Origin: a virus
Taxonomy: Duplodnaviria; Heunggongvirae; Uroviricota; Caudoviricetes
Length of the DNA: 8,036 nt
Virus record (IMG/VR): IMGVR_UViG_2703718851_000009
Reading direction: 5' to 3' (one strand)
Shown here piece by piece: positions 1 through 8,036 of this stretch. The notes beneath the pieces were generated by a model. It was not told the DNA's origin and did no database searches. It saw only the letters and a list, made by a program, of their open reading frames with translations. Every line of letters begins with the position of its first letter. The first letter of the stretch is position 1. The position numbers were made by a program, and so were the translations under genes.

Positions 1-1164
1 TTACGCCTTCTTTATATCCTCCATAATTCCACAGTGGGACATATTTGGGACATTATCACCAAAAATGTCGTCTATTTTCCTTGCATGCTCTGTCAAATGA
101 TTAGGCGCAAGGTGAGCATACCTACGAACCATTTCTATGGACTCCCATCCGCCCATTTCCTGAAGCACAGATAATGGGACGCCTGACTGGATCAGCCAGC
201 TTGCCCAGGTGTGTCTGAGGTCATGGAAACGGAAATCTTCAATTCCTGCACGACGACAAGCTGATAGCCATGATGTCTTGCTGTCGATGCGCATCTTCCT
301 GACCGCAGGCGTTGATGTTCCATCTGCTCGCTTAGCCGCCTTGGTATGTACAAACACCCATTTGTGATGCTTGCCTATTTGATCACGCAACACTTTACAG
401 GCGGTATCGTTCAGCGCCACACCAATGGCGCGGTTTGATTTGCTCTCTTCTGGGTTCACCCAGGCAACTCGTCGCTGCATGTCGATTTGTTGCCATTCCA
501 GATTTATGATGTTCGACTTTCTCAGACCAGTTGCCAGCGCAAACTTGACGACAGATTTCAGTGGTTCGGGGCACTCATCAATAAGGCGTTTTGCTTCCTC
601 CTTTTCCAGCCATCTGACGCGCTTGTTTCTGACCGCTGGTATCTTGATGACAGGCGCTTTTTCCAGCCACTTCCAGTCGCGTTCTGCAGCACGGAGAATG
701 GCCTTTATCATGGCAAGATGCTTTGCCTTTGTCTGAGTTGATACTGGCTTTGGTTCATAAACAGGCGGTTCTTTACCTTTCCTGATGGCGGCCTGAACTT
801 TCTGTTTCCATATTTCTTTCGTCTTTCTGTTATGCATTCTGCTTACAGCAGAGTAAATCTTTGCCTCCGAGATATCTTTAAGCCTTATACCCTCAAAATG
901 TTCAAGCCAGAACTCAATCCGGCTTTTATCTGAATCGAGAGATTTTTTATCAGCTTTTTCTTCAAGCCATCTTAGGCAGGCCTCTTCAAAAGTGACATCA
1001 GGTAAATCCCCTAGCTTTTCTACTCGCCAGAGTTCTGCTTTTCGCTTGTCGTGCAACTCCTGAGCTTGCCGCTTGTCCTTTGTGCCAAGAGATTCCTTAA
1101 TTCGTTTCCCGCCCGGGAGCGAATACGAGGCATACCATATTTCATTTCTGCGGAAGAGTGACAT
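1..1164 (-). CDS. int: Phage tyrosine integrase (P22/lambda Int family), 387 aa
   Basis: Full-length ORF; the N-terminus [21 protein letters not shown] and C-terminal [39 protein letters not shown] (catalytic R..HxxR..Y region) match, from memory, the P22-type integrase family. GAGGAA Shine-Dalgarno lies 6 nt upstream of the ATG at 1164. The stop codon is at window positions 1-3, so attL must lie left of the window. Confidence 0.95.
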
Positions 1165-1391
1165 TTTCTTTCCTCTGTTATGCCATCACCCGCGCTCACC
1201 TGGACAGTATGCAGCGGAGACTGAAGCGCCGCAATGCAAGCTTGCCGTGTTGTGAGGTAAGGAGATTTTGGCTTGGTTGGATCTTTACGTGTTGCCTGTA
1301 GGCGGCCTGTTCGTATCCAGTTGGTGGCGGTTGGTCTGGATATCTTAAGAAAATGACAGGCCTCATCGAGTGTGAGGCTGTATGGCTCCAT
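1020..1391 (-). CDS. xis: Excisionase-like / AlpA-type helix-turn-helix DNA-binding protein, 123 aa
   Basis: Sits immediately upstream of int on the same strand. N-terminus [26 protein letters not shown] resembles excisionase/AlpA HTH motifs. AGAGGTGA Shine-Dalgarno lies 4 nt upstream of the ATG. The 3' end overlaps the int start by 145 nt in another frame, so the true C-terminus is uncertain. Confidence 0.7.
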
Positions 1392-1395
1392 TATT

Positions 1396-1734
1396 TCACC
1401 TCTTGCTGTGACATTTTGAAAGATGGATACCAGCTCGTTGCTGCCAGACGATCCAACCGAGAGTCATATCCCATGCCATGTATTCGTTATCGCCGTTTTT
1501 TGCTCTCCGACGATCTACTAAGTCACCGAAACGCTTTTCCATGAATAATTCATAGGCTGCGCGTTCATCTGGCTCAACTTCCAGAGATGCCAGTGCAATC
1601 CGTGCCAGTTCTAAATCATCTTCAAGCTCAGCGTGAATCTCAGCGAATGCACTCTGTGTTAAGGCGAACTCAATGCTCTGCACTTTATTCCGTGCGCGCT
1701 CAAGCAGTGCATGGTAGTTAATTTCGGTTGTCAT
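1396..1734 (-). CDS. Hypothetical phage early protein, 112 aa, acidic
   Basis: ORF in the leftward operon. Its ATG overlaps the stop of the upstream PAPS-reductase-like gene (ATGA overlap at 1731-1734), suggesting translational coupling. I recognise no domain. Confidence 0.6.
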   Translation of the reverse strand: MTTEINYHALLERARNKVQSIEFALTQSAFAEIHAELEDDLELARIALASLEVEPDERAAYELFMEKRFGDLVDRRRAKNGDNEYMAWDMTLGWIVWQQRAGIHLSKCHSKR

Positions 1735-2609
1735 ACCCCTACCTCTTCGAATTTCAATTCCAATTGATCACCCCAGATTTCACATGACTCTGAACACGAG
1801 CCGGTATCGAATCGTCTGGCCTGTACCATCGCCTGATACAAATTTCTGTAGTCGCTGTTGGCAGACATTCTGGCAATTCCGTCAAGCGTCAGGTGACCAC
1901 GGTACATAACGTCTTTACCTGTTCTGCGATGACCATCCCTGACGTGTTTGCTTGTAACCAGCTCATTAAAAACTCGCATCAGACCAGGTTCGTCTTTACA
2001 TGCAAGCCCCAGCTTTTGCGTTGACTTTTTGATGCAGAAAACACAGTTCCCGAGATGCTCCGGGATTTGCAAATCAAAAGGTTGTTTTCGCCACCATCGG
2101 ATAACATCCGACTTATCAAAATCTGATAGCTCGGCAAGATACCGGACGCCCGATTTCGGTTTCAGCCTACTGGGTTCGTCTGCACGAATACCCAGCCATG
2201 TGATGTAATTACCTCGCCCGAAATGGTTATCGCAGTATTTCGTGAAAGGGATGAGTTTTAGCCTGTCAGTACAGAACGCGCCGCCGATGTATGGCGTGCC
2301 GTACTTTTTAACCATGTCCATAAACGGTTTAAGCACCGGCATTCGCGTCTGAATATCCTTTGGCTCCCATTCTGTATAACCATTAGGCTGCCCAAGCTCA
2401 GGATTTATATCGACCTGCAACACAGTTAGTGGTATGTCCCAGAACTTCACAACCTCCCGAATAAAGCGGTATGTCAGCGGATGTTCGCAACCGGTATCCA
2501 TAAAGATGTAGCAGACGTTATTGCCAGCCTTTCTTTGTTCTTCCATCAGGTGAACAAGATATGCAGATGTTCTCCCGCCAGAAAAACTAACTACATGAGT
2601 TATGCACAT
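1731..2609 (-). CDS. PAPS-reductase-like PP-loop ATP pyrophosphatase family protein, 292 aa
   Basis: N-terminal VVSFSGGRTSAYL is a PP-loop (SGGxxS) motif typical of the PAPS reductase/CysH/DndC-like superfamily. GGAG lies 8 nt upstream of the ATG. The start overlaps the stop of the HD-domain gene by 10 nt. Confidence 0.85.
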   Translation of the reverse strand: MCITHVVSFSGGRTSAYLVHLMEEQRKAGNNVCYIFMDTGCEHPLTYRFIREVVKFWDIPLTVLQVDINPELGQPNGYTEWEPKDIQTRMPVLKPFMDMVKKYGTPYIGGAFCTDRLKLIPFTKYCDNHFGRGNYITWLGIRADEPSRLKPKSGVRYLAELSDFDKSDVIRWWRKQPFDLQIPEHLGNCVFCIKKSTQKLGLACKDEPGLMRVFNELVTSKHVRDGHRRTGKDVMYRGHLTLDGIARMSANSDYRNLYQAMVQARRFDTGSCSESCEIWGDQLELKFEEVGV

Positions 2610-3136
2610 TTGCGTAACTCCGATAACTCGTTAAAACGTTCCATAAACATCCCGTAGGCATGTCCTGGTGACAGTGGAATCACTTTGAACATCTCTGTTG
2701 CTGGGATACCTTCCAGCACAGGCCAGAAAGAGCCATCATCAAGTCCGAGATCGCGGCGTTCTGTTGCCAGCATGATGAGATCGGCATATTTCACTGGCGT
2801 GCTCATAACCGGAGGTAACCCGTATTTCTCACGGATTACGGCGTCTATTTTTTCTTCCATCCGTTTATAGTCAGGAAGAAGGCGTTTCAGTGGTGCGGGG
2901 ATGTCCTGGCAATACGCTTCTGTTGCATCATGCATTAACGCTTCAAAAGCAAACTCCTCCGGTACCAGCATGCTGCAAAGCACCGCATGTTGGGCGACGC
3001 TATAGAAGTGTGAAAGGTGTCCTGCAAAGCGGCAGATATTTGAAAGGGAAACCGCGATATCGTTAATAACGATGTCGTCTTTATTTATCTTGTCATAATA
3101 AAAATGCTTCCCGGAAAAAGTTTTAATAAATGACAT
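2600..3136 (-). CDS. HD-domain phosphohydrolase, YfdR-like (5'-deoxynucleotidase family), 178 aa from the ATG at 3136
   Basis: H..HD metal-binding signature (SVAQHAVLCS...ALMHDATEAY). The ORF track starts at a GTG at 3163, but the ATG at 3136 has a strong GGAGAA Shine-Dalgarno 4 nt upstream and gives 178 aa, the length I recall for E. coli CPS-53 YfdR. That identification is from memory of length and domain, not a search. Confidence 0.85.
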   Translation of the reverse strand: MSFIKTFSGKHFYYDKINKDDIVINDIAVSLSNICRFAGHLSHFYSVAQHAVLCSMLVPEEFAFEALMHDATEAYCQDIPAPLKRLLPDYKRMEEKIDAVIREKYGLPPVMSTPVKYADLIMLATERRDLGLDDGSFWPVLEGIPATEMFKVIPLSPGHAYGMFMERFNELSELRKCA

Positions 3137-3180
3137 TTTGTTCTCCACGTATATGCGCTGCACCGCGCTGAATTTTGGTT

Positions 3181-3251
3181 AAAGAAAACCCTCGCCATCA
3201 GGCGATTATTGAGTCAATTATGTTTCCATAAATGCCCCCGCAGGGGCATTT
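3181..3251 (-). terminator. Intercistronic hairpins between the YfdQ-like and HD genes; possible partial terminator or attenuator
   Basis: Perfect 9-bp stem AAATGCCCC/GGGGCATTT with 4-nt loop at 3230-3251. A second 5-bp stem TCGCC/GGCGA at 3192-3205 is followed on the minus-strand RNA by GGGUUUUCUUU. Confidence 0.35.
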
Positions 3252-3263
3252 GCAGTAATGAAA

Positions 3264-4088
3264 TCAGGCGTTGAAAGTACCAATAAAGGTTTCTACTTTG
3301 CTGTCCTTGAATTTCTCAACAAGCAGATCACGAAATTCGTTAGCCATTTCTTCCTGCACTGCTTCCAGCTGAATAATGCGCAGAACCAGTACAGGACGAT
3401 CGCCAGTGATAATGCTGAGGCGTAATTTAAATGGACGTTCTTTCAGGCCTTCAAACGGAACGCATTTAAATTCAAATGCCACTGGCATAATGTCTTTGGT
3501 CTTCGCTTCGACAGACTCCATCAGGGAGCGTTTGCCGCTGAAGTCATTATCTTCAAAATCAGCGGTCTGGTTTGCTTCAATCGTGATTTTACGGACTGCC
3601 GCAGCCGCTTTTGTTGCCTGAATAGCGTCACCATTAGCATCAAAGCCCACAAGGTAGTCGGCCCAGTCTTCAATCCATTCTGCCAGTGACTTCTGGGTGT
3701 TACGCTCGCCGTTAACAGACAGCAGAGCAGAGAACGGTGCTGTCTTTTTCAGTTTGAGAGTGGCGGTGTTATCTGCGTGACCTGGTTCATCAATAGTACC
3801 CAGGTTAAGCACACTGACGGCACGCATATTATCAGCATCGATAAAGCAGCGGGTGCCTTCATCTGCAAGATCTTTAGAATAACGGGTAAAGTCATTGATG
3901 CTGGCAGTGGAAAGCGCACCACGGAAACGGAAGCGATTTAAATTAAATTTTTCCAGATCATGAATGCGGAAATTCTCAGGCAATGCCACAGCATCGGCAC
4001 CAATCTTACTGATAATTTCATTAACACCCTGAGCAGAAATAAGGGCATGGATTTGATTAATTGCGGTTGCGTCTAAGTTCTGAGACAT
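3264..4088 (-). CDS. YfdQ-like prophage protein (DUF2303-type), 274 aa
   Basis: Full ORF with GAGGA Shine-Dalgarno 6 nt upstream of the ATG. Length and position next to the HD gene match the CPS-53 yfdQ-yfdR arrangement as I recall it. Family assignment is by context and length, not by search. Confidence 0.75.
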
Positions 4089-4153
4089 AATAAGTCCTCA
4101 CTATATAAAGATCTTCAGTGATGAGATAAATAATCAGTTTATTAAAAACGATA

Positions 4154-4516
4154 TTAATGACCTGCTGCGCGGAGTTTTCCGTCAGGTTCACCGGCAAGAG
4201 TCAGTAATTGTCCCTGGTCTTCCTGCAGAATAGTCAGGCGACCACCACGATTGACATACATCGGCGTTTCGGTGGTGTCTTCTTCGGAAATTTTCCCGCG
4301 GTTAGTTGGGCGAACATATGAGAGTTTGTGTTTGATTTTCACACGGTTCTCATCAAATGGTTCGATTTCCAGGTTGAGTGAGACCTTACCTTTGGTTTTC
4401 GTGTTCATCACACCGGAAGCGACTTCACTGAGAACTGCGCCGATTTTGGTTTCAAATACGCCGCCGTCCAGCTCCCCGATAAATGCCTGCACATCAGTAC
4501 TGCGTTCGCTAGCCAT
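4154..4516 (-). CDS. Small hypothetical prophage protein (YfdP-like), 120 aa
   Basis: The ORF track extends this to 4834 (226 aa), but the N-terminal 106 residues translate a GC-rich structured region and look non-protein-like. The ATG at 4516 has a GAGGAG Shine-Dalgarno 7 nt upstream and gives 120 aa. Confidence 0.65.
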   Translation of the reverse strand: MASERSTDVQAFIGELDGGVFETKIGAVLSEVASGVMNTKTKGKVSLNLEIEPFDENRVKIKHKLSYVRPTNRGKISEEDTTETPMYVNRGGRLTILQEDQGQLLTLAGEPDGKLRAAGH

Positions 4517-4565
4517 TTTGCTGCTCCTCATCATATCGACCCTGCAAGGCCGATTAGTTTCTCCA

Positions 4566-4652
4566 CAAAACAGAGAAGAACACCTGCGGTGGCAGCCGCC
4601 CGGATGGATTGGGTTATGAGCCCGTCGTCCGGTGATGCTCTTCTCTGTTTTG
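4566..4652. repeat. Long hairpin: 14-bp perfect inverted repeat CAAAACAGAGAAGA / TCTTCTCTGTTTTG flanking a 59-nt GC-rich interior
   Basis: Arms at 4566-4579 and 4639-4652 are exact reverse complements. The interior contains further short complementary segments such as CCGGA..TCCGG. Confidence 0.6.
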
Positions 4653-4925
4653 TAAAAAGGACGGTACCAGCCGGAAGCAAGGGTACAAACTGGTACCGCC
4701 AGGACTACACACAGCATAAAGTTGTGGTGCCGGGTGCCTCCCGGTGCCTGGCGAAGGTTGCACACCAGACGGGTGGGTATCCACAGAAGGTCGACTGTCA
4801 GCCTCAACCTTAACCCGCGTGCGCTGAGCCGCATTCACCACAACGCTAAGGATTCTCTCTGGTTGAAAATACTTAGCTGTTATGTGCCTGCTTTTAGCCA
4901 CATCAGGCGAGGTGGACCTGGTTAT

Positions 4926-4971
4926 TCCCCAACAACAAGGATTCGGTTAATCTGGATATCCCCAACAACAA
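4926..4971 (+). repeat. Two copies of the 13-bp direct repeat TCCCCAACAACAA, spaced 33 bp
   Basis: Exact copies at 4926-4938 and 4959-4971, immediately upstream of the plus-strand ORF start. Confidence 0.6.
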
Positions 4972-4985
4972 TAAGAGTATTCAAT

Positions 4986-5501
4986 GTGATCGCTGAATTA
5001 ACGGCAGCAATGACGGCTATTCGTGAAACAGCCCAGATTGCAAAACTAATGAACGAGGCAAAAACTCAAGCTGAAGTAAATGCGGCTATTGGTGAGCTGA
5101 ACTCAAAGCTTGCGTCTATTCAGCGCGAATGCGTGTCTCTCGTTGAACTGGTGGGCTCTTATCAAGAAATAAATGCTTCTCTCAAAGCTAAAATTGCAGA
5201 ATTCGAAAACTTTGAGGCTCAGACGGAAGGCTATATCCTTAACCAACTTGAGTCGGGTACTTTTGTATACTCGAAGGAGGTAATCGTGAACGGTGGCAGC
5301 ATAACCATGCATCTTTGCCCAAAATGTTTTGGACAAAAGATAGTATCGATACTTCAACCATTCCCGGTTAGCGAAGATGAGCTTTTTCATAAAAGCAGGT
5401 GCCTCCACTGTGAAAATAAGTTTCTGATGAATAAAAATCCGGATTACGTATCGCCTCCATCCATTGAGGAGTTGTCCAGAAAACTTAACGGCAATCTGTA
5501 G
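4986..5501 (+). CDS. Orphan hypothetical protein, about 163-171 aa: predicted helical N-terminal half and C-terminal four-Cys (CPKC...CLHC) zinc-ribbon-like motif
   Basis: Plus-strand ORF opposite to all flanking early-left genes, AT-rich relative to its flanks, with a protein-like translation. Start is ambiguous: in-frame GTG at 4986 or ATG at 5010, both with weak Shine-Dalgarno. The ORF-track start at 4722 is rejected because the upstream part translates the structured region. An intrinsic terminator follows. Confidence 0.6.
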   Translation: MIAELTAAMTAIRETAQIAKLMNEAKTQAEVNAAIGELNSKLASIQRECVSLVELVGSYQEINASLKAKIAEFENFEAQTEGYILNQLESGTFVYSKEVIVNGGSITMHLCPKCFGQKIVSILQPFPVSEDELFHKSRCLHCENKFLMNKNPDYVSPPSIEELSRKLNGNL

Positions 5502-5540
5502 ATTACTACTGTTGTGGATATCCAGATTGTTAAAGAGCTA

Positions 5541-5563
5541 AGCGTCCTGTAGGGCGCTTTTTT
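5541..5563 (+). terminator. Rho-independent terminator for the plus-strand orphan gene
   Basis: 7-bp stem AGCGTCC/GGGCGCT (one G-U pair) with loop TGTA, followed by TTTTTT, 40 nt after the TAG stop at 5499-5501. Confidence 0.6.
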
Positions 5564-5649
5564 GTTGCTAACGAATCATCCTGGACTTCATATGCCCCAG
5601 GCGGCTACTTCGCGGGCGTCCTGCCTGTTCGTTATCTTTGATATAAAAT

Positions 5650-5699
5650 CTAACTTAACTTAGTTATCATGGCAAGAGAAAACACCAAACTTTTCTTAG
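5650..5699. promoter_or_regulatory. Putative OL: two 14-bp operator-like sites, CTAACttaaCTTAG (5650-5663) and CAAACttttCTTAG (5686-5699)
   Basis: Same 5-N4-5 architecture and CTTAG half-site as the two sites between cI and cro. Located just downstream of the cI stop, where OL/pL is expected. A possible leftward promoter (-35 TTGCCA at 5675-5670, -10 TAGATT at 5652-5647 on the minus strand) is inference only. Confidence 0.45.
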
Positions 5700-5728
5700 T
5701 TCGGTGCCTTAGTTAGAGAAGAGAGGTC

Positions 5729-6355
5729 TTAGAGTTCGTATTGAACTCCTTTGACTACACCAATGATAAGGCAATTACCATTGATAGGGATGTTGGGATA
5801 CCGAGGATTTAATGGCACTAAAAACTTTTGAGGGCCATCGATGACTAATTTTTTTACTGTAGCTTCGTTTGTTCCATCAAGTCGAGCGATGACTATTTTT
5901 CCATGACGAGGTTCTGCATCTGGATCTACAATCACTGTTGCGCCTTCTGGTATTGTTGGGAGGCCATTAGGGTTAGTCATGGAGTCACCTTTAACCTCTA
6001 ATGCAAATGAGTTATCACCAACCTTTAATGATGTATCTACCCACTTGTCCACTTCACTAAACACTTCTGCTGCCCTGCACTCAGTAAACTGCCCAGCCTG
6101 AACCCACGATATTACAGGAACTCTGCGCATGTTTGTGACGAGTTTGCCTTCAAACTCAGCACCATAAAGAATGTAATCTATTGACGTATTGAAGAACTTC
6201 GCTAATTTCGAAAGTGCCTCCCCGCCAGGGGTATTGATGTCTTTCTCCCAGTACCCCACAGCAACGTCGCTTACTCCACAAAATTTACCCAATTCTTTCT
6301 GGGACGTTCTGGTAACTCTTCTCAGAGCTTTTATACGCTGACCAACCGTTTCCAT
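5729..6355 (-). CDS. cI: CI/C2-type prophage repressor: N-terminal XRE-family HTH plus C-terminal LexA-like S24 autopeptidase domain, 208 aa
   Basis: HTH region QKELGKFCGVSDVAVGYWE, Ala-Gly autocleavage site in ISWVQAGQF, Ser nucleophile in GDSM and Lys in TVKKLV. Strong resemblance to the P22 C2 repressor family (ISWVSAGQW, QGDSM, NPxYP, INGNC motifs) as recalled. Transcribed divergently from cro. Confidence 0.95.
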   Translation of the reverse strand: METVGQRIKALRRVTRTSQKELGKFCGVSDVAVGYWEKDINTPGGEALSKLAKFFNTSIDYILYGAEFEGKLVTNMRRVPVISWVQAGQFTECRAAEVFSEVDKWVDTSLKVGDNSFALEVKGDSMTNPNGLPTIPEGATVIVDPDAEPRHGKIVIARLDGTNEATVKKLVIDGPQKFLVPLNPRYPNIPINGNCLIIGVVKGVQYEL

Positions 6356-6377
6356 AGGAGCACCATTTCTTTAATTG

Positions 6378-6440
6378 CTAAGTAATCTTAGTTTTTATTG
6401 ACCAAAGATAGATTTGTAATTAGCATCTAACAAAACTTAG
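6378..6440. promoter_or_regulatory. Putative OR/PR: operator-like sites CTAAGtaatCTTAG (6378-6391, perfect palindrome) and CTAACaaaaCTTAG (6427-6440) bracketing a sigma70-like promoter towards cro
   Basis: -35 TTGACC at 6398-6403, 17-bp spacer, -10 TAGCAT at 6421-6426. The second operator overlaps the -10/start site. GGAGGG Shine-Dalgarno at 6444-6449 precedes the cro ATG. Confidence 0.55.
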
Positions 6441-6452
6441 TTTGGAGGGCGT

Positions 6453-6653
6453 ATGACAACTGACGATATCGAAAGCTACTTCGGCAGTATTGAGAAAGTT
6501 GCTGCTTTTTTCGGCATAACAACTGAAGCCGTTTATCAGTGGCGAAACCGTCCGGGCCAGTTAATTCCAAAAGGACGTGCAGCAGAAGCTGCATATAGAA
6601 CTTGCGGACGGTTGCCATTTAAACCTGAGCTTTATGAAAAATCTAATGGATAA
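6453..6653 (+). CDS. cro: Cro-like HTH regulator (YdaS/Cro family), 66 aa
   Basis: Small HTH protein (FGITTEAVYQWRNR) divergent from cI, with a C-terminal ...KPELY motif typical of YdaS-type Cro proteins. Good Shine-Dalgarno. Confidence 0.85.
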   Translation: MTTDDIESYFGSIEKVAAFFGITTEAVYQWRNRPGQLIPKGRAAEAAYRTCGRLPFKPELYEKSNG

Positions 6654-7242
6654 ATCGATTAACAGAAACCACAGAACGATGAGGCTAACCGTGGGTAAGC
6701 ATCACTGGAAAGTAGAAAAACAGCCTGAGTGGTACGTGAAAGCTGTCAGAAAAACTATCGCAAAGTTGCCGGGTGGTTACGCTGAAGCAGCTGACTGGCT
6801 GGATGTAACAGAGAACGCATTATTTAACCGCCTTCGTGCCGATGGCGATCAGATTTTCCCGCTGGGATGGGCAATGATTTTGCAACGTGCTGGTGGAACT
6901 CACTTCATTGCTGACGCAGTGGCGCAGTCTGCAAATGGCGTCTTTGTGTCTCTTCCTGACGTCGAGGATGTGGACAACGCCGATATCAACCAACGCCTGC
7001 TGGAAGTCATTGAACAGATCGGCAGTTATTCAAAACAGATTCGTTCAGCAATTGAAGACGGTGTAGTGGAACCGCATGAGAAGACAGCAATTAACGATGA
7101 GCTGTACCTCTCAATTTCGAAGCTGCAGGAGCATGCAGCACTGGTCTACAAAATCTTTTGCGTTTCAGAAAGTAGTGACGCCCGCGAGTGTGCAGCTCCG
7201 GGCGCCGTGGCGTGTCGTGACTGTGGAGAAACTAACGCATGA
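6646..7242 (+). CDS. CII-like / YdaT-family regulatory protein, about 198 aa
   Basis: Follows cro on the same strand. Resemblance to the YdaT family (CII functional analogue in Rac-type prophages) is recalled, not searched. The ORF-track start at 6577 overlaps cro by 77 nt; the ATG at 6646 overlaps only the cro stop. No clear Shine-Dalgarno, so the start is uncertain (alternatives 6634, 6679). Confidence 0.65.
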
Positions 7243-7577
7243 ACAGTTTAACAACACACTACCGTCGCTCGCAACTGATTGCGCTTCCTGTACCGGGTGG
7301 AAAAGCGAAGGTGGAGTATTGCTATGCAGTAAATGTACCAGGTGACAGGGAAATTGTAACCCACAGCTTTGCAGAGTGGGCTGTGGGTGATTTCAACCGG
7401 CAGAAGGAGACAGTCCTTTGCGACAAGTTAACCGCTGGTTCAAAGATCACTACGGAGTGCCCGTCAGAGTCATTCGTTGGGAGCCGGAAACACAACGTGT
7501 TATCTACCTCCGCGAAGGCTATGAGCATGAGTGCTTCAGCCCGCTCGAACAGTTTCGTCGTAAATTCAGGGAAATAG
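7239..7577 (+). CDS. Hypothetical protein, 112 aa as an intact ORF, but possibly a frame-disrupted gene (see findings)
   Basis: ATG overlaps the YdaT-like stop (ATGA). The N-terminal ~57 codons look coding. The 3' part in this frame is Ser-rich and uses rare codons (tta, tca, tct), whereas a different frame at 7391-7597 uses E. coli-preferred codons and translates to a protein-like sequence. Confidence 0.35.
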
Positions 7578-7586
7578 AGGTCGGTC

Positions 7587-8036
7587 ATGAGCACTAAATT
7601 AACCGGCTATGTATGGGATGGTTGCGCAGCGTCAGGCATGAAATTATCCAGCGTGGCAATTATGGCCCGCCTGGCTGATTTCAGTAATGACGAAGGTGTG
7701 TGCTGGCCATCGATTGAAACCATTGCACGCCAGATTGGCGCGGGGATGAGTACCGTCAGAACGGCTATCGCACGGCTGGAAGCAGAAGGCTGGTTAACGC
7801 GTAAGGCGCGTCGCCAGGGTAACCGCAATGCGTCGAATGTTTATCAGCTTAACGTTGCGAAGCTTCAGGCAGCGGCATTTTCTCAACTGTCAGATTCTGA
7901 CCCGTCAAAATCTGACGCATCAAAATCTGACCCGTCAAAATTTGATGCGTCGAAATCTGGCAAAAAAGCGGGTTTTCACCCGTCAGAATCTGGCGGGGAT
8001 CCGTCAGTAAAATCAAAACATGATCCGTCAGATAAA
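7587..8036 (+). CDS. Replication initiator (lambda O / P22 gp18-like), 5' partial, runs off the window end
   Basis: Not in the ORF track because it has no stop inside the window. ATG at 7587 with GAGG 6 nt upstream; open for all 150 codons to 8036. Translation MSTKLTGYVWDGCAASGMKLSSVAIMARLADFSNDEGVCWPSIETIARQIGAGMSTVRTAIARLEAEGWLTRK looks like a winged-helix N-terminal domain, followed by SDPSK-type pentapeptide repeats encoded by the iterons. Confidence 0.7.
   Translation, partial: MSTKLTGYVWDGCAASGMKLSSVAIMARLADFSNDEGVCWPSIETIARQIGAGMSTVRTAIARLEAEGWLTRKARRQGNRNASNVYQLNVAKLQAAAFSQLSDSDPSKSDASKSDPSKFDASKSGKKAGFHPSESGGDPSVKSKHDPSDK
7889..8036 (+). repeat. Iteron-like tandem repeats (about 15-bp period, each with internal dyad such as TCAGAttCTGA or GTCAaaatcTGAC): putative phage origin inside the initiator gene
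   Basis: At least five consecutive ~15-bp units at 7889-7960 and three more degenerate CCGTCAGA-type copies up to 8036. Lambda ori likewise sits inside the O coding sequence. Confidence 0.6.

Follow-up and report, generated by a model that had tools for sequence, protein, structure and literature searches.

A lambda NinC relative in the early-left operon of an Escherichia coli prophage, a probable mosaic of separately inherited genes

Do four genes packed closely on one strand of a phage genome form a single functional module, or have they come to share a transcript from separate origins? The question is raised by positions 1731-4516 of an 8,036-nucleotide stretch of tailed-phage DNA (Caudoviricetes; IMG/VR record IMGVR_UViG_2703718851_000009), hereafter the window. 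The original prediction, made from the letters alone, had read these genes as one nucleotide-enzyme module comprising a PP-loop protein resembling phosphoadenosine phosphosulfate (PAPS) reductase, an HD phosphohydrolase and relatives of YfdQ and YfdP. Our analysis indicates that the stretch is probably a mosaic early-left operon whose three units, the yfdP-yfdQ pair, yfdR and an orthologue of lambda ninC, are transcribed together and were not inherited together.

Composition and distribution of the operon

The whole window is 100% identical to the chromosome of Escherichia coli N61, a bovine mastitis isolate, and is part of an E. coli lambdoid prophage of the CPS-53/SfV type integrated beside a tRNA-Arg gene. 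As had been described, the four genes are co-oriented and tightly packed or overlapping, and all are intact minus-strand open reading frames (ORFs). The overlaps measure 10 nucleotides between yfdR and the NinC-like gene and 4 nucleotides between the NinC-like gene and the next ORF, and the gaps 65 nucleotides between yfdP and yfdQ and 127 nucleotides between yfdQ and yfdR. The features of the operon are as follows.

5647-5675, minus strand: candidate leftward promoter PL (TTGCCA, 17-nucleotide spacer, TAGATT), from a consensus scan
4154-4516, minus strand: yfdP, 120 residues, first gene of the yfdP-yfdQ pair (PHROG 204)
3264-4088, minus strand: yfdQ, 274 residues, DUF2303 (Pfam DUF2303, PHROG 210)
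2600-3136, minus strand: yfdR, 178 residues, or 187 if an upstream GTG at 3163 is used (PHROG 318)
1731-2609, minus strand: NinC-like gene of the PP-loop ATP pyrophosphatase family, 292 residues (PHROG 424, homology to lambda NinC)
1396-1734, minus strand: YfdT-like ORF, 112 residues (orf112; PHROG 660, 2e-21), a frameshifted 'DNA-binding protein' according to the Prokaryotic Genome Annotation Pipeline (PGAP)
about 1600-2601, strand not applicable: swapped cassette, without homology to K-12 CPS-53 or phage SfIV

The candidate PL lies just left of the cI-like gene and is directed at yfdP, a position that matches the lambdoid layout. Promoter-like sites are rarer in this region than in shuffled sequence, so that the match at 5675-5647, a reasonable PL candidate, is weak evidence. 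The four genes appear to lie downstream of this PL-like promoter and are read in the direction of int, in agreement with the early-left assignment made earlier.

We surveyed 5,426 complete E. coli genomes, counting the yfdR-yfdQ-yfdP block at a coverage of at least 80%, and found the block in 2,456 genomes (45%). The NinC clade of the window had 463 occurrences in 431 genomes, including 72 on plasmids, and the complete four-gene stretch was found in 272. A scan with a YfdQ alignment, restricted to one genome per species, gave 27 loci spanning Enterobacterales, Vibrio, Marinobacter, Alcanivorax, Kistimonas, Comamonas, Rubrivivax and others. In local hidden Markov model (HMM) searches of these loci, YfdP lay directly upstream of YfdQ in 26 of the 27 (the exception being a truncated YfdQ) and YfdR directly downstream of YfdQ in 15, nearly all from Enterobacterales; NinC was found within 5 kb of YfdQ at none. 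The four genes are thus not co-conserved, and the claim of one co-conserved module gave way to independent assortment of NinC and yfdPQR (0 of 27 loci; 272 versus 2,456 genomes). All four genes belong to named families and the arrangement already occurs in those 272 sequenced genomes, so that the locus is mostly ordinary.

The one near-obligate association is that of yfdP with yfdQ, which were also adjacent in six of six divergent phages examined. The pair is carried by phages and prophages of many Gammaproteobacteria and some Betaproteobacteria, usually amid early DNA-metabolism genes. The gene that follows YfdQ is variable (YfdR, PHROG 1363, SSB, DUF1351 or an exonuclease). The reach of the pair beyond enterobacteria includes Xanthomonas.

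Close relatives of the window NinC show a tighter pattern. Among the best 80 relatives in a NinC-alignment scan of IMG/VR, all at least 92% identical, each informatively flanked locus has NinC downstream of YfdP-YfdQ, in one of two operon types: a K-12 type, in which YfdR comes next, and a Stx2a type, with YfdP and YfdQ 52-59% identical to those of the K-12 type, in which a PHROG 1363 gene comes next. This subclade of at least 92% identity has spread between two early-left operon types in an equivalent slot. That it always follows YfdP, YfdQ and one further gene in two such divergent lineages speaks for a single module whose members share a substrate and alter the nucleotide pool or modify DNA or RNA, as do the shared orientation, the yfdR-NinC and NinC-orf112 overlaps, which permit translational coupling, and the tendency of DNA-modification genes to sit at this place (in Citrobacter phage phiNP, an adenine methyltransferase two genes after yfdR). 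We nevertheless consider such a module very unlikely: NinC is missing from all 27 YfdQ species loci and from about 89% of the E. coli genomes with yfdPQR, the NinC family resides mostly in nin regions without yfdPQR and also on phage-plasmids, Stx2a-type phages carry a non-HD gene (PHROG 1363) between YfdQ and NinC, the 10-nucleotide overlap serves yfdS as well, and the nucleotide affinity reported for YfdR is low.

Comparison with the CPS-53 (KpLE1) prophage of K-12 locates the exchange. The K-12 order is yfdP-yfdQ-yfdR-yfdS-yfdT-ypdJ-torI, and the window shares this gene order, with YfdP, YfdQ and YfdR 97-99% identical and, after them, a YfdT-like ORF and excisionase region. It differs in having the 292-residue NinC-like gene where K-12 has yfdS (DUF551, 120 residues), in the N-terminus of YfdT, and in its integration site, which is argW for CPS-53 and the tRNA-Arg gene near fimZ for the N61 prophage. 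By blastn, window 2602-4535/4969 is homologous to K-12 and SfIV, homology to K-12 resumes at 1329-1599 with 94% identity (SfIV reaches only 76.5%, over 70-1599), and the roughly 1 kb in between resembles neither. At the nucleotide level, window 1722-2611 shares 89.7% identity with Stx2a-type phage Ss-VASD and 74.5% with lambda ninC.

The right junction of the cassette coincides with the yfdR stop codon and the left one falls inside yfdT; the chimeric orf112 therefore matches K-12 YfdT (84% identity) over residues 36-106 only and draws a frameshift call from PGAP. Judged from these alignments, the NinC cassette took the place of all of yfdS but of only the 5' end of yfdT. The earlier statement that the PP-loop gene stands in for yfdS and yfdT thus holds for yfdS, whereas yfdT lost its 5' end only and a YfdT-like ORF stays at 1396-1734. 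The 10-nucleotide overlap with the downstream start codon is also used by yfdS in K-12 and SfIV, so coupling belongs to the slot rather than to NinC. E. coli prophages that carry either NinC or yfdS in this one slot constitute a natural near-isogenic system for the study of NinC function.

Downstream of yfdR the cargo is variable, and phages differ in the DNA-modification genes that they carry there. In phiNP, positions 3573-7412 hold yfdP-yfdQ-yfdR, a small hypothetical gene, the adenine methyltransferase, an exonuclease and then xis. On the 94-kb phage-plasmid NZ_CP159120.1, NinC lies at 5001-5873 (about 91% nucleotide identity) amid ead/Ea22, DUF968 and metallophosphoesterase genes, with no yfd genes beside it; the four plasmids listed with the NinC clade measure 93-136 kb. 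NinC moves between integrated lambdoid prophages and extrachromosomal phage-plasmids.

The PP-loop gene and its relation to lambda NinC

The gene called PAPS-reductase-like in the original prediction is, by sequence, an orthologue of lambda NinC. The two proteins (lambda Orf290, NP_040635) are 79% identical over 285 of 292 residues without a gap, and have the same length, PP-loop and conserved cysteines. PHROG 424 matches residues 5-290 (8e-91), and tblastn of phage genomes with the window protein returned 588 records. Identity is 93% to the copy of a Stx2a-type phage and 55% (residues 3-282) to the N-terminal domain of p0018 from Vibrio crassostreae phage 44E38.2. The window copy falls in a subclade of at least 90% identity common to Stx2a-type phages and phage-plasmids, with the lambda copy outside it.

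What sets the window copy apart is its place. NinC usually stands between NinB and NinD or NinE, as in lambda, O276, Oslo and three E. coli prophages; O276 and Oslo annotate the gene between ninB and ninD as NinC, and E. coli homologues of 54% identity showed the order NinB-NinC-NinE in three of three places. Lambda ninC occupies the ninB-ninD interval of the nin region in the rightward operon, whereas the window gene lies in the leftward operon, after yfdR and near xis and int, and so outside the nin region that separates the replication genes from Q. Since membership of the family is decided by sequence homology and not by location, it stands.

We then asked what kind of enzyme the protein may be. 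The sequence elements on which this bears are the following.

2565-2588, minus strand: PP-loop motif SFSGGRTS, NinC-like residues 8-15
2265-2276, minus strand: C113 of the NinC-like protein, upstream of C189xxC192
2226-2237, minus strand: C126 of the NinC-like protein, upstream of C189xxC192
1782-2045, minus strand: cysteine set of the NinC-like protein (C189xxC192 at 2034-2045, C272xxxC276 at 1782-1796)

The PP-loop had been pointed out before and is where it was expected. Across 44 homologues of 50-95% identity, S8, S10, G11, G12, R13, S15 and D38-T39-G40 are invariant, as are cysteines C113, C126, C189, C192 and C276; C272 is kept in at least 90%. With an SGGxD/TS-type loop at the N-terminus and a Rossmann-like alpha/beta fold, the protein has the marks of a PP-loop ATP pyrophosphatase. 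Its AlphaFold2 model (mean predicted local distance difference test score, pLDDT, 86.6; predicted template-modelling (TM) score 0.85) is confident except at residues 267-292, where pLDDT drops below 50, and the tail bearing C272 and C276 is predicted to be disordered and mobile. The C-terminus reads DTGSCSESCEIWG. The nearest Foldseek matches are CysH (6vpu) and APS reductase (2goy) at E of about 1e-5 and TM scores of 0.37-0.50; the sulfur transferases LarE and MnmA rank next, ahead of TilS.

Is the gene then a genuine assimilatory PAPS reductase of the CysH type, an auxiliary metabolic gene that boosts host sulfur assimilation? Pfam PAPS_reduct (PF01507) matches it at 1.4e-8, with 35.4 bits against a gathering score of 22.5, CysH and APS reductase are its top PDB matches by sequence and by fold, and it carries the name phosphoadenosine phosphosulfate reductase (domain-containing) protein in both RefSeq and PHROG. 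CysH also resembles it in layout: CysH has a mobile Cys-bearing C-terminal tail, and in both a nucleotide-binding alpha/beta core precedes such a tail. The Pfam and PDB matches are, however, limited to the N-terminal 70-100 residues (5-71 for PF01507), and the match to the NCBIfam CysH equivalog NF002537 reaches 20.5 bits where 154 are required, and spans residues 5-81 only. The PP-loop is the canonical SGGRTS, where CysH has a degenerate SSSFGIQA at the aligned position. ECGLH is the catalytic C-terminal motif of PAPS reductases; no ECG(L/I)H occurs in the window protein, whose C-terminus carries GSCSESCE (CSESCE). CysH and APS reductase belong to a sulfur-assimilation context, to which the genomic context here is unrelated: members of the family lie beside genes for replication, recombination and DNA methylation, and in some cases form fusions with Dam. 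True CysH identity was rejected on the equivalog score, the canonical loop and the missing ECGLH motif, and we regard the assimilatory reading as extremely improbable. The PAPS-reductase-like label therefore survives as a statement about the domain; the identity with lambda NinC had been missed.

Virome studies often count phage 'PAPS reductase' genes as sulfur-metabolism auxiliary genes. Annotations of this name include the NinC family, which fails the sequence tests for CysH and for which the only functional data point towards anti-defence; a metabolic reading of such annotations is not warranted.

A second group of PP-loop enzymes, DndC, SspD and BrxP, shares with the window protein the canonical ATP-pyrophosphatase loop and the presence of conserved cysteines. 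The best match among defence profiles, to PADLOC SspD at 1.2e-14, covers the N-terminal half only (residues 5-154, against profile positions 2-127 of 277); the matches to DndC (4e-3) and BrxP are weak, and the DndC profiles, with 468-481 positions, are far longer than the protein with its 292 residues. No dndA/iscS, dndD/sspC or dndE/sspB partner was found in the window or in 6 kb of flanking DNA, nor were Dnd/Ssp partner genes present in the other NinC contexts examined. Modelling and motif conservation are consistent with an ATP-using adenylating enzyme with a metal or Fe-S site formed by cysteines and a mobile Cys tail. By analogy with DndC, SspD, TtcA and LarE, it may carry out sulfur or thiol chemistry on an adenylated substrate.

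YfdR, the YfdP-YfdQ pair and the roles proposed

YfdR is 97% identical to its K-12 counterpart and matches PHROG 318 (deoxynucleoside monophosphate (dNMP) phosphatase) at 1e-110 and the HD protein 2gz4 at 1.1e-13. Its conserved residues His50 (AQH), His69-Asp70 and Asp119 form the H...HD...D signature, which together with homology to the characterised YfdR places it in that family. The HD dipeptide that had been noticed is located here:

2927-2932, minus strand: HD dipeptide, YfdR residues 69-70

The sole Pfam match of YfdR, to YfbR-like (PF12917), reaches 23.2 bits where the gathering score is 25.9, and the search gave no hit to PF01966 at E <= 0.01; the HD assignment therefore draws on PHROG 318, the identity to K-12 YfdR and the 2gz4 match. 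All four domain calls of the original prediction proved correct (PAPS_reduct, HD by way of PHROG 318 and 2gz4, DUF2303, PHROG 204), with HMM support well above chance, and of the three Pfam families it had proposed as a check, PF01507 and DUF2303 were recovered and PF01966 was not. PGAP labels the protein a 5'-deoxynucleotidase. YfdR resembles the housekeeping enzyme YfbR, the HD-domain 5'-deoxynucleotidase of E. coli, in its H...HD...D signature and in being named a dNMP phosphatase by PGAP and PHROG, whereas it falls below the Pfam and NCBIfam thresholds (19.1 bits against a cut-off of 122 for the YfbR equivalog NF003009), has a nucleotide affinity reported to be much below that of YfbR (PMC4776307, citing Zimmerman 2008) and binds DnaA. 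By sequence, neither YfdR nor the NinC-like protein is the housekeeping orthologue, YfbR or CysH respectively.

The report on the CPS-53 yfdQRST cluster and DnaA to which the original prediction referred is real, and its content is as stated there (PMC4776307). Noguchi and Katayama (2016) found that YfdR is the only protein of the cluster that binds DnaA, at domain I with Phe46 important, and that it partly blocks the binding of DiaA and DnaB (PMC4776307). In multicopy, yfdQ and yfdR with either yfdS or yfdT form the minimal set that suppresses hda-185 over-initiation and inhibits wild-type initiation; yfdP is not needed for this inhibition at oriC, and deletion of yfdQRST gave no phenotype, including in replication or with hydroxyurea (PMC4776307). 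With the low nucleotide affinity of YfdR, and DnaA binding as the only specific activity shown for it (PMC4776307), the nucleotide-pool effect once proposed for the module finds no support.

YfdQ matches DUF2303 (PF10065) at 1e-91 across nearly the whole profile (residues 7-272 against positions 2-269 of 269) and is a full-length member of that family; it also matches PHROG 210 (1e-119) and is 98% identical to K-12 YfdQ. PDB entry 9o7m, titled 'YfdQ Protein', came up in a profile search of PDB sequences and matches it at 1.2e-43 in a single-sequence search, with roughly 40% identity by eye. The entry contains 36 chains of one 274-residue sequence, which suggests a large homo-oligomer or assembly; a literature search found no paper citing it. 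The AlphaFold2 model of the window YfdQ (pLDDT 72.7) gave no significant match in a fold search, and none to known single-strand annealing proteins (SSAPs), Gam, Ku or nucleases.

YfdP matches PHROG 204 (3.9e-50) and is 99% identical to K-12 YfdP; it showed no relative in the PDB, either with the single sequence or with a six-sequence profile. A Shine-Dalgarno sequence, GAGGAG, precedes the ATG at 4516, and the 120-residue form is therefore probably the right one. The ORF that holds yfdP is open for 226 codons (4154-4834), and phage SfIV annotates the long form (gp34). In this long ORF the PHROG 204 match covers residues 101-225 only, and the first 100 residues are rich in Arg and Cys and look non-coding. 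PGAP places a separate frameshifted hypothetical gene at 4531-4841.

The yfdR-yfdQ-yfdP cluster is frequent in lambdoid early-left operons, and its P and Q members, so far without a function, are unlikely to be recombinases (2025 Genome Research, PMC12315714). Could YfdP and YfdQ, with or without YfdR, instead handle DNA ends or single-stranded DNA or counter nucleases, as a RecBCD modulator or recombination accessory, with the DnaA effect a side effect of overexpression? SSB or exonuclease neighbours recur in the Stx2a type, Vibrio 36E38.1, Kistimonas, Sodalis and Marinobacter; the cluster occurs in lambdoid phages without a known recombination module (PMC12315714); and the 36 chains of 9o7m suggest a large assembly. 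Set against this, the cluster is also carried by phages with a complete Rec module and a recombinase role was deemed unlikely (PMC12315714), the YfdQ model resembles no SSAP, Gam, Ku or nuclease, and the neighbours vary. We find this alternative unlikely. A hidden recombinase as the main explanation of YfdQ and YfdP was rejected on the same report and the lack of fold similarity.

For the mosaic operon that we favour, the following course of events can be proposed. Upon induction or infection, the leftward transcript would supply YfdP, YfdQ and YfdR, which would dampen the initiation of host replication. YfdR, like its K-12 counterpart, would bind DnaA domain I and partly block the binding of DiaA and DnaB, and YfdR and YfdQ with YfdS or YfdT would lower initiation at oriC, as on overexpression. 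The same transcript would yield NinC as an independent accessory enzyme, which most likely would adenylate a nucleic-acid substrate with ATP and put its cysteines to work in sulfur or thiol chemistry; counter-defence against phosphorothioate-based immunity of the Dnd/Ssp type would be its most probable role. Gene identities, mosaic junctions, co-occurrence counts, purifying selection and the K-12 and Vibrio-phage experiments with close homologues are established results; for what NinC does chemically and to which target, for a role of YfdP and for the replication effect at natural expression levels, this course draws on inference.

The counter-defence role of the PP-loop gene is plausible by analogy, because a 55%-identical homologue belongs to a two-gene insert that confers escape from Dnd. 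Transfer of p0018 and the adjacent p0019 of Vibrio phage 44E38.1 into a sensitive phage allowed infection of a Dnd host (Piel et al., bioRxiv 10.1101/2021.05.05.442762), a result cited as a case of a phage PAPS reductase aiding Dnd evasion (PMC13551039, 2026). The Vibrio protein has all the invariant motifs of the window NinC and is the sole family member with experimental functional evidence; it differs in its length of 479 residues and its C-terminal Dam methyltransferase, whereas the window NinC stands alone with no methyltransferase nearby. A broader proposal would make the whole NinC family, including lambda NinC, widespread, stand-alone counter-defence enzymes that apply ATP-dependent adenylation and cysteine or Fe-S sulfur chemistry to phage DNA or to a host modification intermediate and so evade Dnd, Ssp or BREX type 4; the window copy, moved from the late-early nin region to the leftward early operon, would then be made from the outset of infection or induction, beside YfdR and YfdQ. 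We advance this proposal tentatively and consider it doubtful. The host takeover or counter-defence suggested in the original prediction is plausible gene by gene and not as the work of a single nucleotide-enzyme module.

Several observations weigh against the mosaic operon with these roles. Lambda can do without ninC if polarity on Q is corrected (PMC10695390), and an interaction map of lambda lists NinC as 'poorly understood' with no interactions detected (PMC3224144). The Vibrio insert combined the Dam fusion with p0019, so its effect may not stem from the NinC-like domain alone. The absence of dnd/ssp partner genes from the window points the same way. The replication phenotype in K-12 appears only in multicopy and deletion of yfdQRST is silent, and with yfdS absent and the YfdT-like ORF chimeric, the inhibitory set may be incomplete here. 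The constant position of the NinC clade of at least 92% identity may reflect a looser functional link of NinC with YfdPQ in the early-left position. Finally, PGAP flags three neighbours as pseudogenes (the xis-like gene, the YfdT-like gene and an ORF upstream of yfdP), and the N61 prophage may be partly degraded or decaying.

These pseudogenes, with the silent yfdQRST deletion in K-12 and the non-essential lambda ninC, would also fit a history in which the genes are inert cargo of a decaying prophage, assembled by neutral lambdoid mosaicism. All four ORFs are nevertheless intact and keep every invariant family residue, and the same genes are present in the functional phages SfIV, SfV, PhiR and Stx. 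The ratio of nonsynonymous to synonymous substitution rates was 0.08 for NinC against the Stx2a-type copy and 0.06, 0.16 and 0.08 for YfdR, YfdQ and YfdP against K-12, and values of 0.06-0.16 indicate purifying selection on the four genes. Inert cargo is in our judgement distinctly unlikely.

Since the yfdP-yfdQ-yfdR trio has already been discussed in the literature and the fourth gene is lambda NinC, the residual interest of the locus lies in the roles of NinC and of the ubiquitous YfdP-YfdQ, the truly conserved unit.

The surrounding prophage region

The remaining annotated features of the window are these.

1-1164, minus strand: integrase (RefSeq)
5729-6355, minus strand: LexA/S24-type cI repressor
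6453-6653, plus strand: cro

In RefSeq, the N61 prophage adjoins a tRNA-Arg gene next to fimZ and has an intD-type integrase. The order in N61 is tRNA-Arg, int, a xis remnant, the YfdT-like gene, the NinC-like gene, yfdR, yfdQ, yfdP, cI and cro, with a CII-like ymfL gene and replication genes beyond cro; between yfdP and cI, RefSeq has a frameshifted hypothetical gene and a plus-strand ORF of 171 residues. A scan of the window with Rfam at gathering thresholds found no RNA family, NCBIfam gave no matches for YfdQ, YfdP, orf112 or the 171-residue ORF, and PADLOC gave none for window genes other than the NinC-like gene.

Within window 1020-1734, RefSeq marks an excisionase-like helix-turn-helix (HTH) gene and the YfdT-like gene as incomplete or frameshifted, and the excision functions of the N61 prophage may be impaired. 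An ORF of 123 residues at 1020-1391 overlaps the start of the integrase by 145 nucleotides. The gap between yfdQ and yfdR contains a weak terminator-like hairpin at 3192-3205 (minus strand), a consensus match with a 5-bp stem followed by GGGTTTTCTT, which may act as a transcriptional attenuation point between the P-Q pair and the downstream genes.

The 171-residue ORF (4986-5501, plus strand; PHROG 1244) is coiled-coil-like and lies in antisense orientation between yfdP and the PL-like promoter, as a moron might; a strong terminator-like hairpin follows its 3' end at 5540-5559. At the far end of the window, 7896-7959 holds 4.3 tandem copies of the 15-bp unit TCTGACCCGTCAAAA within a RefSeq HTH-domain gene downstream of ymfL. 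These TCTGACCCGTCAAAA repeats resemble the origin iterons inside lambdoid O-type replication genes, and the last part of the window (7820-8036) matches a segment of K-12 CPS-53 close to yfdO at 99% identity.

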